Shown here in pieces: positions 15,167 to 16,777 of a stretch of DNA of 59,100 bases. Below the pieces are notes generated by a model. It was not told the origin of the DNA. It saw nothing but the letters and a program-made list of their open reading frames with translations, and did not search any database. Numbering within the stretch: the first letter of the stretch is position 1; each line of letters begins with the position of its first letter. Made by a program: the position numbers and the translations under genes. The stretch is from an uncultured Gammaproteobacteria bacterium. GTDB lineage: Bacteria > Patescibacteriota > Microgenomatia > Levybacterales > UBA12049. The stretch spans positions 1-59,100 of the forward strand of contig CAZKJM010000003.1 of assembly GCA_964553245.1 (NCBI GenBank), in the 5' to 3' direction.

Positions 15167-16777
15167 AGAAAGGAGGTGATCCATCCCCACCTTCGGGTAG
15201 GGATACCTTGTTACGACTTAAGCCTCATCGCCGATCTCTATCTCTATCGCAAATACAATATTCGATAGCTACCGACTTTGCTGCCTTGACGGGCGGTGTG
15301 TACAAGACCCGAGAACGTATTCACCGCAGCTTGCTGATCTGCGATTACTACCGATTCCGACTTCATGGAGGCGAGTTTCAGCCTCCAATCTGAACTGAGG
15401 CGAAATTTGAGAGATTAGCTTAATGTTGCCATTTTGCAACTCGTTGTTTTTCGCCATTGTAGTGTGTGTGTAGCCCAGGGCGTAAGGGCCGTGCTGACTT
15501 GACGTCTTCCCCTCCTTCCTTCCCAAAAAATGGGACCGTCTCCAATGAATATTTAACATTGGATGGGGGTTGCGCTCGTTTCCCCACTTAAGGGAACACC
15601 TCACGGCACGAGCTGACGACAGCCATGCAGCACCTGTGCAATCATCCTTACGGATTTCCCTCTGTTTCCAGAGGAATGTACGATTGCATGTCAAGCCCTG
15701 GTGAGGTTCTTCGTTTTGTCTCGAATTGAACCACACGCTCCACCGGTTGTGCGGGTCCCCGTCAATTCCTTTGAGTTTTAGCCTTGCGGCCGTAGTCCCC
15801 AGGCGGTTCGCTTAACGCGTTAGCTTACACCCCGCCTTACAAGTAAGACAGAGCTAGCGAACATTGTTTACGGCTAGGACTACACGGGTATCTAATCCGT
15901 TTCGCTACCCTAGCTTTCGTGCCTCAGCGTCAGGAAAATCCCAGATGCCTGCCTTCGCCCTTGGTGTTCCAGTTAATATCAACGCATTTCACTACTACAC
16001 TAACTGTTCCAGCATCCCTGATAATCCTCAACCTTAATAGTATTGTACCCATTTCCAAGGTTGAGCCTTGGTATTTAAAGTACAACTCATTAAGGCGCCT
16101 ACGCACACTTTACGCCCAGTGAATCCGGATAACGCTTGCCTCCTACGTATTACCGAGACTTCTGGCACGTAGTTAGTAGAGGCTTATTCGCCAAGCTGTG
16201 AAGAGCTTGGCAAAAGGAGTTTACGACCCGAAAGCCTTCTTCCTCCACGCGGCGTCGCTGGGTCAGGGTTTCCCCCATTGCCCAATATTCCTGGTTGCTG
16301 CCACCCGTAGGTGTACTGCCCGTGTCTCAGTGCAGTTGTGGCTGATCGACCTCTCAGTCCAGCTACCCGTCATTGCCTTGGTAGGCTTTTACCCCACCAA
16401 CTAGCTGATAGGACGCAGGCTCCTCCCTTGGCGACCAGTTAAGGTCTTTACTCTTACGAGAACTATGGAGAATTATCCCATCTTTCGATGAGCTATGCTC
16501 CACCTAGGGGTAGATTCCTACGCGTTACTCACCCGTCTGCCACTCAACTCGTGTTCCACACGAGAAAATCCTAAATTTAAAATTCGAAATCCGAAACAAG
16601 CTATAATTTCCAAAATTCAAATGTTTAAAACATTTCAAAATTTAGATTTTGAATTTGTTTAGAGCTTCGACATTCGTGTTTAGAATTTCCTTGTGTGAAA
16701 CACAAGATTCGTTCGACTTGCATGCCTAAGGCACGCCGCCAGCGTTCATCCTGAGCCAGGATCAAACTCTCAAGAAA
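15167..16777 (-). rRNA. rrs: 16S rRNA, unlinked (no tRNA or 23S follows), with a ~165-nt helix-6 insertion
   Basis: 27F site at 16751-16770, 806R and 1492 regions, anti-SD GATCACCTCCTT at the 3' end; exact ends approximate. Confidence 0.99.
16546..16709 (-). other. Intervening-sequence-like hairpin insertion in 16S helix 6 (V1), built from heptamer repeats
   Basis: Outer stem 27/28 paired on the rRNA strand, including G-U pairs; inner AAATTCG/AAATCCG and TTTAGAT/TTTGAAT arrays; no ORF. Confidence 0.85.

Follow-up and report, generated by a model that had tools for sequence, protein, structure and literature searches.

The window analysed here is a stretch of 59,100 nucleotides, positions 1-59,100 of contig CAZKJM010000003.1 in the assembly GCA_964553245.1, which GTDB places in UBA12049 of the Levybacterales. 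The organism is a Levybacteria-type member of the CPR with a tiny genome, and its assembly amounts to 854 kb in 9 contigs. On the minus strand of the window, at 15169-16777, lies a 16S rRNA gene that matches the Rfam model RF00177 (SSU_rRNA_bacteria) over model positions 1-1533 with 1384 bits, and a search of the assembly showed it to be the single full-length copy. Covariance-model alignment finds the gene intact across all these model positions outside one insert of 164 nt, which is located at the tip of helix 6 (16546-16709, minus strand) and whose structured unit, from an arm P to an arm P', spans 16548-16706. In the Rfam alignment the apical loop of helix 6 has 142 nt versus 3 in the model. 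The spacing from GCAAGTCGA to ACGGGTGAGTAA is accordingly 176 nt in this genome versus 21-33 nt in 17 of 20 relatives, where the short helix 6 is usually a small stem with a GCAA-type loop, and the remaining three relatives hold other inserts in helix 6. The 23S rRNA gene of the same genome also carries inserts, one at helix 25 and one of ~965 nt with a LAGLIDADG ORF.

If the sense RNA of 16530-16725 is folded, it gives one long hairpin of -61.6 kcal/mol (z = -6.1), which none of 200 dinucleotide shuffles equals, and the flanks of the insert pair in it as the ordinary base of helix 6. The basal stem joins RNA positions 20-47 of this transcript to 151-178 and is paired at 27 of 28 positions; it deviates from Watson-Crick pairing by exactly four G-U or U-G pairs and one A.C mismatch. 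The loop region at the far end is an apical hairpin in the minimum free energy structure (RNA positions 80-117, corresponding to 16609-16646 on the minus strand). An earlier reading of this DNA made from its letters alone (the sequence-only reading) had described an IVS-like, ORF-less hairpin of ~165 nt in helix 6, with the same numbers of paired positions and of G-U pairs in its outer stem on the rRNA strand and with a palindrome in each outer arm, CTCGTGT-TCC-ACACGAG (16548-16564) and CTTGTGT-GAA-ACACAAG (16690-16706). Position, fold, pair counts and palindromes all turn out to be right, and the comparison of helix 6 with its short form in the 17 relatives agrees with it. Its further idea that the element could also fold as a cruciform holds as a possibility, but the alternative structure that uses both palindromes reaches only -49.3 kcal/mol and is 12 kcal/mol weaker than the long hairpin.

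Does the insert encode anything, or does it belong to a known class of introns? No credible ORF was found in it. The frames that touch it are merely spurious ones of at most 55 aa extending into rRNA sequence, and exact look-ups of two of those overlapping the insert led to no further contigs; a PF05635 gene was not found in its loop either. The insert alone, with a G+C content of 29%, matches no group I or group II intron at the Rfam gathering threshold, nor at E values up to 10, so that the intron match which the sequence-only reading had named as fatal to its proposal did not appear; its sub-threshold Rfam matches are generic long hairpins alone (plant miRNA precursors). When the insert was searched with blastn-short against its own genome, no second full copy came up, just word matches of 12-34 nt, and a metagenome scan with a genus-specific V2 word gave no match.

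The insert is made of two modules. The outer one consists of two palindromic arms of 17 nt, P on the 5' side of the RNA (CUUGUGU-UUC-ACACAAG, 16690-16706, minus strand) and P' on the 3' side (CUCGUGU-GGA-ACACGAG, 16548-16564, minus strand), and these two pair with each other. As a consensus, CUUGUGY-NNN-RCACAAG pairs with CUCGYGY-NNN-RCRCGAG, and without exception the 5' arm reads CUUGUG...CACAAG in the RNA sense, and the 3' arm CUCGYG...CRCGAG. A relaxed motif that fits both P and P', CTYGYGY-N3-5-RCRCRAG, occurs at only four sites in the 854-kb genome, two of which flank the helix 6 insert and the other two the insert in 23S helix 25. With a stricter P pattern, 33 of 201 genomes of the order are found versus 2 for the reversed control. 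The module is spread over 29 of 89 genera; together with the short helix 6 of most relatives, this makes the distribution of the insert sporadic. Among 30 P loci fetched, 25 proved to lie inside rRNA genes when compared by BLAST with the rRNAs of the genome studied here; some are in 16S helix 6, others at various places of the 23S gene, among them helix 25 and a position consistent with helix 45. The outer arms had been taken before as part of a dispersed genomic repeat, and this has to be given up, because they form a separate module that occurs almost only in rRNA.

The same site was then found occupied in a similar manner elsewhere. A scan for P directly after the base of helix 6 detected 97 metagenome contigs with P at this place, which yielded 26 unique inserts, 70-221 nt in length, all of them without an ORF and seven with AAATTCG-type arrays. 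Two metagenome contigs have a solo P hairpin as the tip of helix 6. Inserts of the same architecture at the same site are also present in three independent genomes (G027, G158 and G200). Since the arrays between P and P' differ widely in their heptamer word, P/P' is a constant adaptor with an exchangeable hairpin inside, and since the combination of P with AAATTCG arrays stands at helix 6 in several metagenome contigs, the whole unit looks inherited or transferred ready-made rather than assembled in this genome. P/P' is one of several adaptors: a second one, CUCAAGG...CCUUGAG with CUCAAAG...CUUUGAG, flanks AAATTCG elements in 16S helix 9, the hairpin that immediately precedes the conserved UAAAG, in three genera, and a third one, GGUCYG..RGACC with CUGUCY..RGACAG, is seen on both sides of the helix 6 inserts of genomes G010 and G037. 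It was also considered that the palindromic arms might be a target-site duplication, with the native helix 6 hairpin as the duplicated part. The idea fails because the two arms have loops that complement each other and are not identical, so that they are not a direct duplication, and the presence of the same P at several unrelated 23S sites is also against it.

At which level are these arms kept? In each arm three positions form the loop, and those of P pair with those of P' in 63 of 63 cells, with at least five pair types per column and many double changes; their covariation score is 0.325 versus 0.127 in shuffles, a value that 0 of 500 shuffles reach, and sliding the partners along each other makes it collapse. 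P' also keeps a second pairing, that with itself, through compensatory changes. At position 5/13 of its local stem, the metagenome set, in which P' stood outside the search pattern, has CG in 15 cases, TA in 9, TG in 2 and CA in 0, and changes that keep this local hairpin create A.C mismatches in the long stem; such an A.C is invariant at P15/P'3, and roughly every second copy has one at P13/P'5. The invariant C3 and G15 of P' account for an A.C and a U.G pair in the long stem. Covariation thus supports both the long stem and the local hairpin of P', although the two exclude each other, and a simple IVS model does not account for this duality. As to the strands, the sense fold is stronger than the antisense fold in all 28 rRNA inserts, by a mean of 12.8 kcal/mol, versus only 10 of 15 intergenic and in-ORF copies, and many P/P' pairs are G-U pairs, which function in the sense transcript alone. 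The covariation and strand statistics, which are raw counts not corrected for shared ancestry, show that the rRNA hairpins are under selection on the sense strand at the RNA level.

The inner module is an AT-rich hairpin of inverted, degenerate heptamer arrays, which nhmmer assigns to the AAATYCG family (16565-16689, minus strand). The members of this family were first found through BLAST with the helix 6 insert, and the family HMM was built without the helix 6 copy; 16566-16688 matches it over its full length, HMM positions 1-131, with 68.3 bits (E 4e-19), against a null of 10 bits for the best match in the reversed genome. In a BLAST comparison of the 16S gene with 60 relatives, query positions 90-213 match many places other than rRNA in at least 14 genomes, and the insert part also matches C1:253515-253636 in its own genome. 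An element of the family, ~131 nt long, has four A-rich heptamers, AAACAA, an AT-rich loop, TTGTTT, and four T-rich heptamers complementary to the former. The A-rich words are AAATTCG, AAATCCG, AATATCG, and AAGCACG or AAACTCG, and TA replaces CG in some lineages.

The heptamer make-up of the inner arms, as the sequence-only reading had it, is clear in the family alignment and only there. In the helix 6 copy it is degenerate: for the T-rich arm the lag-7 self-match reaches 0.58 (P = 0.0085), for the A-rich arm 0.45, which is not significant alone, and Tandem Repeats Finder reports no array in this copy. What is conserved in the family is the sequence of the heptamer words, and their mirror order is not strictly complementary. 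RNAalifold gave no consensus structure for the family alignment, in which the heptamer registers vary among copies, and folded as single sequences most copies form hairpins with z of -4 to -7.

Outside the 16S gene, the genome has few of these elements. About five copies were counted in total, in the rpoA/rplQ spacer, in the ybeY/dnaX spacer, in the nusG/rplK spacer, in 16S helix 6 and, more weakly (20 bits), in the 23S gene, so that the family is not abundant and can hardly be called the heptamer repeat of this genome, as had been done. The copy in the nusG-like/rplK spacer lies within the window at 41599-41695 (39.6 bits, E 2.8e-10), before the start of rplK at 41714, and folds weakly, with z about -1.9. 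It had been called very similar to the inner arms of the insert. The two indeed match one and the same HMM, with 68 and 40 bits, but their identity is 61%, and the wording was too strong. More generally, the helix 6 copy shares 75-77% identity with copies of other genomes and only 61-62% with the intergenic copies of its own genome; being nearer to the former, it was not recently copied from the latter. Of the proposal that a dispersed repeat of the genome has entered the rRNA, what stands is that the inner part is a member of a family with intergenic copies, a likeness whose absence would have told against the proposal; a recent transfer from the genome's own repeats is what does not stand.

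The family is widespread in the order. A sequence-only covariance model detects it in 124 of 201 genomes and in 66 of 89 genera, and the same model finds none in the two genomes of the same genus. Its niches are of three kinds: between genes, in frame inside genes, and at the tips of rRNA helices. The intergenic copies fit their spacers closely: the gaps to the neighbouring genes are mostly between -4 and +9 nt. In relatives, two copies lie stop-free and in frame in protein genes, one of the FemAB family and the other of DUF2298, where a single Pfam stretch (PF02388, aa 23-331, and PF10060, aa 17-365, respectively) spans each insert of 35-44 aa.

What relation do these gene-less hairpins have to inserts that carry a gene? 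A gene of the PF05635 family (23S_rRNA_IVP), coding for a four-helix bundle, lies on the plus strand of the window at 36215-36641 together with its own inverted heptamer arrays of the GTTATGA type; its Pfam match, C3:36273-36584, scores 102.9 bits. Of 61 relatives, 44 have such genes, and a single genome can have as many as 20. The genome studied here has four, at least three of which have inverted heptamer arrays of their own on both sides, that at C4:2532 being less clear. In G010, a PF05635 gene is inserted in sense orientation in 16S helix 6 itself, in the order of adaptor, array, ORF, array and adaptor, and G037 has at helix 6 an ORF-less insert with the same adaptor arms as G010. The helix 6 unit is a gene-less counterpart of PF05635-bearing IVSs, one of which occupies the same site in G010. 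Among 55 relatives, the AAATTCG family is present in 28 of 38 genomes with a PF05635 gene versus 2 of 17 without (Fisher P = 2e-5, phylogeny not corrected for). AAATTCG-type arms were seen around PF05635 genes at 0 of 44 loci, which means that among these loci no autonomous parent of the AAATYCG family was found.

How, then, does a single-copy 16S rRNA gene live with such an insert? Classical IVSs are cut in their stem by RNase III and the ends are not ligated, while the remnant of the stem can hold the pieces together (PMC4990558). By analogy, we consider that the helix 6 insert is probably an intervening sequence of this kind, excised by RNase III and removed without ligation. It would be transcribed within pre-16S rRNA, where the 27/28-bp stem and the imperfect upper stem would form; canonical RNase III would then cut the stem, and the upper hairpin would be lost with no re-ligation. 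The products would be a 5' piece of ~90 nt and the rest of 16S rRNA, kept together by what is left of the stem and by helices 1-4, and after the cut the P and P' arms may either remain paired or refold as hairpins of their own. It is probably the regular P/P' stem that makes the mismatched array hairpin a good substrate for RNase III. The enzyme is encoded at C2:93992-94384 (PF14622, 126.9 bits) in an ORF of 218 aa, which has the ERLEFLGDS motif and whose C-terminal tail resembles a dsRNA-binding domain.

Another fate can be imagined, in which nothing is cut and the insert stays in mature, unfragmented 16S rRNA as an expansion segment, an extension of ~60 bp to the spur. In the 30S subunit, helix 6 forms the spur, which is exposed to solvent, and engineered hairpins are tolerated there. 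An arm that points into the solvent makes retention physically possible, the sense-strand selection would be explained by it equally well, an insert in a single-copy gene must be compatible with function in any case, and the copies of the inner module that lie in frame within coding sequences tell that the array hairpin is not always destroyed in RNA and can persist there. Nevertheless, a regular duplex of 27/28 bp is a textbook substrate for the canonical RNase III that this genome encodes. The inner arrays are freely exchanged among P inserts of the same site, which is not expected for a functional part of the ribosome, and the P unit sits also at classical IVS sites of 23S rRNA, helix 25 included. 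Inserts in CPR rRNA genes are moreover reported to be removed from transcripts (Brown et al. 2015, as cited in PMC11270868). Retention is thus the main rival, though a less probable one, and we hold excision to be the better founded of the two. It is improbable that the palindromes matter as DNA, with the arrays or cruciform arms serving as a site of protein binding or recombination and the RNA hairpin being incidental. Each arm is a perfect local palindrome, the heptamer words are kept as words in a mirror order without strict complementarity, the intergenic copies have no strand asymmetry, and the association with PF05635 genes (28/38 versus 2/17, P = 2e-5) would also suit such a site; the rRNA copies, however, maintain their pairing by G-U pairs that exist in the sense RNA only and fold better in sense in 28 of 28 cases, the loop-loop covariation of P and P' fits an RNA stem, and a gene for a hairpin-binding Y1 transposase/RAYT is absent from the genome.

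Two further explanations deserve little credence. In this metagenome-assembled genome, a palindromic repeat might have been joined to the 16S contig by mistake, or the gene might be dead; the assembly does consist of 9 contigs, but an artefact that recurs with the same architecture at the same site in three other genomes and 97 metagenome contigs, in a gene which is otherwise intact over model positions 1-1533 and whose flanks make a normal helix 6 base, is very improbable. That the insert is a group I or II intron, self-splicing or protein-assisted and removed with ligation, is the least credible of all. Over half of the CPR rRNA inserts are group-I-like according to PMC11270868, and the LAGLIDADG-bearing insert of the 23S gene shows that this genome has inserts with such an ORF, but no intron family matched even at the most permissive E value used, and one simple hairpin of 164 nt with 29% G+C cannot form an intron core.

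Beyond the excision of a single insert, the findings invite a wider reading, which is speculative and which we would not expect to hold as a whole: that an order-wide system of mobile hairpins uses rRNA tips, operon spacers and in-frame sites of protein genes as its niches, with PF05635 acting in trans and a two-state P/P' adaptor. The rRNA tip niche might require the dedicated adaptor stem, and the gene-less copies might rely on PF05635 four-helix-bundle proteins, supplied in trans, to recognise their heptamer arrays. The long P/P' duplex would present the insert to RNase III, and after the cut the arms would snap into their own hairpins and cap the new rRNA ends. Since each arm is palindromic, P and P' are also near-direct repeats of each other, and these might allow a clean loss of the insert at the DNA level, leaving behind a solo P hairpin such as is seen in the two metagenome contigs.

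Among known systems, RNase III-type IVSs are the closest. They have in common with the helix 6 insert the position at the tip of a variable helix, complementary ends that form a long stem, and a sporadic occurrence among relatives; gene-less forms and forms bearing PF05635/S23p share one architecture, and the genome has its own insert in 23S helix 25 and encodes RNase III. IVSs have been described without ORF in helices 25 and 45 of Salmonella and Yersinia and with ORF in Leptospira and Coxiella (PMC4990558). Unlike these, the present insert is in 16S helix 6 and not in 23S rRNA, it has a conserved basal P/P' module in which each arm is a palindrome, its upper hairpin comes from a repeat family that lives also outside rRNA, and its excision is proposed by analogy.

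In the CPR, inserts are present in nearly half of the 16S and in most of the 23S rRNA genes, and according to Tsurumaki et al. (2024; PMC11270868) many of them are short, ORF-less and left uncharacterised; the same work reports 23S_rRNA_IVP ORFs in inserts of both 16S and 23S genes and already suggests a likeness to IVSs for short inserts at 23S sites. The helix 6 insert fits the description of these short inserts there, being below 200 bp, neither intron-like nor ORF-bearing, and placed on top of a stem-loop where conservation is lower. That work counts the short inserts and places them by site, whereas P/P', the heptamer arrays and the link to intergenic and in-ORF copies were not found in its accessible text. 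Nor was a description of the P/P' adaptor with its covariation, of the identity of the hairpin with an intergenic and in-ORF repeat, or of the co-occurrence with PF05635 found in the searchable literature. At least one large class of the short gene-less inserts in CPR rRNA is thus modular, a covarying adaptor stem that holds an exchangeable heptamer-array hairpin, and the latter also colonises operon spacers and protein genes and co-occurs with PF05635. This gives a sequence signature by which such inserts can be found and masked in 16S surveys, and a processing model that can be tested, namely the action of RNase III on the P/P' stem.

Outside rRNA, the inner family is reminiscent of Rickettsia palindromic elements (RPEs) and of the Correia/NEMIS MITEs, which are likewise palindromic, ~100-150 bp long and form RNA hairpins (PMC10969869); Correia hairpins in mRNA are cut by RNase III (PMC10969869). 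Like RPEs, family members in relatives reside both between genes and in frame without stops. In contrast to RPEs and MITEs, their arms are arrays of 7-nt words and not unique terminal repeats, and the rRNA copies have an extra adaptor stem. As for the marks of a MITE, inverted arms are present, the P/P' loops are complementary, no target-site duplication of the element was seen, no parent element was identified, and no parent transposase is known. The REPIN/RAYT system also offers a likeness, because there too two inverted palindromic units make one long hairpin and P/P' resemble a REP doublet; P/P', however, are confined almost entirely to rRNA and flank a variable insert, and this model was rejected for lack of a Y1 transposase in the genome, PF01797 having no match here while control genomes were positive. 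Taken in this light, the helix 6 insert connects the classical IVSs of rRNA, the in-frame palindromes of the RPE type and the PF05635 family.

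The palindromic outer arms that pair as the basal stem of the 16S helix 6 insert (P and P′) are also found in the 23S gene of the same genome, which lies at 526515-530657 of contig C1. Its helix 25 holds a 138-nt insert (C1:527103-527240, corresponding to 2604-2741 of the fetched 23S locus L049), whose arms, CTTGTGC-GAA-GCACAAG and CTCGCG-TTT-CGCGCGAG, are P and P′ as in helix 6. Another genome, G027, has exactly this P arm in the insert at its 16S helix 6. The heptamer word of the helix 25 insert, AAAGTCA/AAAGGCA, differs from that of the helix 6 insert in the genome under study.

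A second insert of about 965 nt is located in the same 23S gene (L049 4245-5211, own 23S positions 2230-3196), and relatives lack it. An ORF inside it (L049 4360-4899) specifies a protein of 179 aa that contains LAGFVEGEGSF, a motif of the LAGLIDADG type. At this 23S locus, none of the Rfam intron families scored up to the gathering threshold. In the window, a gene for a four-helix-bundle protein of the 23S_rRNA_IVP family (PF05635) is located at 36215-36641 between a tRNA gene and rpmG, with inverted GTTATGA-type heptamer arrays on both sides.

How do helix 6 and its surroundings look in other lineages? In two metagenome contigs (L166 and L215), nothing but the P hairpin, CTTGTGC-TCT/GTA-GCACAAG, forms the tip of 16S helix 6, and arrays and P′ are absent; either these lineages have such a tip natively, or the insert was lost and left it behind as a footprint. 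In two others (L175 and L222), a GC-rich palindrome, CCTGCCTGCCGGCAGGCAGG, is nested inside the hairpin of the helix 6 insert, apparently a second element that has entered the first. The 16S gene of genome G089 carries an AAATTCG-type insert within helix 9; about 200 nt downstream of that gene, a group II intron D1-D4 model (RF01998) matches with 40 bits (L097 2046-2122, on G089:C8). A helix 6 insert of another kind, 327 nt long and with neither the P module nor obvious heptamer arrays, is found in G039 (L025, on G039:C2). The two genomes of the same genus, G001 and G002, have no PF05635 genes, AAATTCG-family copies or P motif. Both assemblies lack the 5′ half of the 16S gene (the G001 contig ends at 16S query position 624), which leaves them silent on how old the insert is in this genus.

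AAATTCG-family hairpins also lie within protein genes. One is in a gene of the FemAB family (L032 504-635, on G030:C59) and another in a gene for a DUF2298 membrane protein (L040 533-638, on G011:C9). Both are in frame and free of stops, and a single Pfam stretch bridges each of the resulting 35-44-aa inserts. In the genome under study, a tandem array of four AAATCCG units (C1:497446-497483) is in frame within a murD-like ORF (C1:496219-497676) and is read as KSEIRNPKSEI. In-frame, stop-free insertion into genes is the known behaviour of Rickettsia palindromic elements, and the hairpins in the FemAB and DUF2298 genes behave likewise. Helix 25 of 23S rRNA, where the 138-nt insert sits, is a classical site of intervening sequences.
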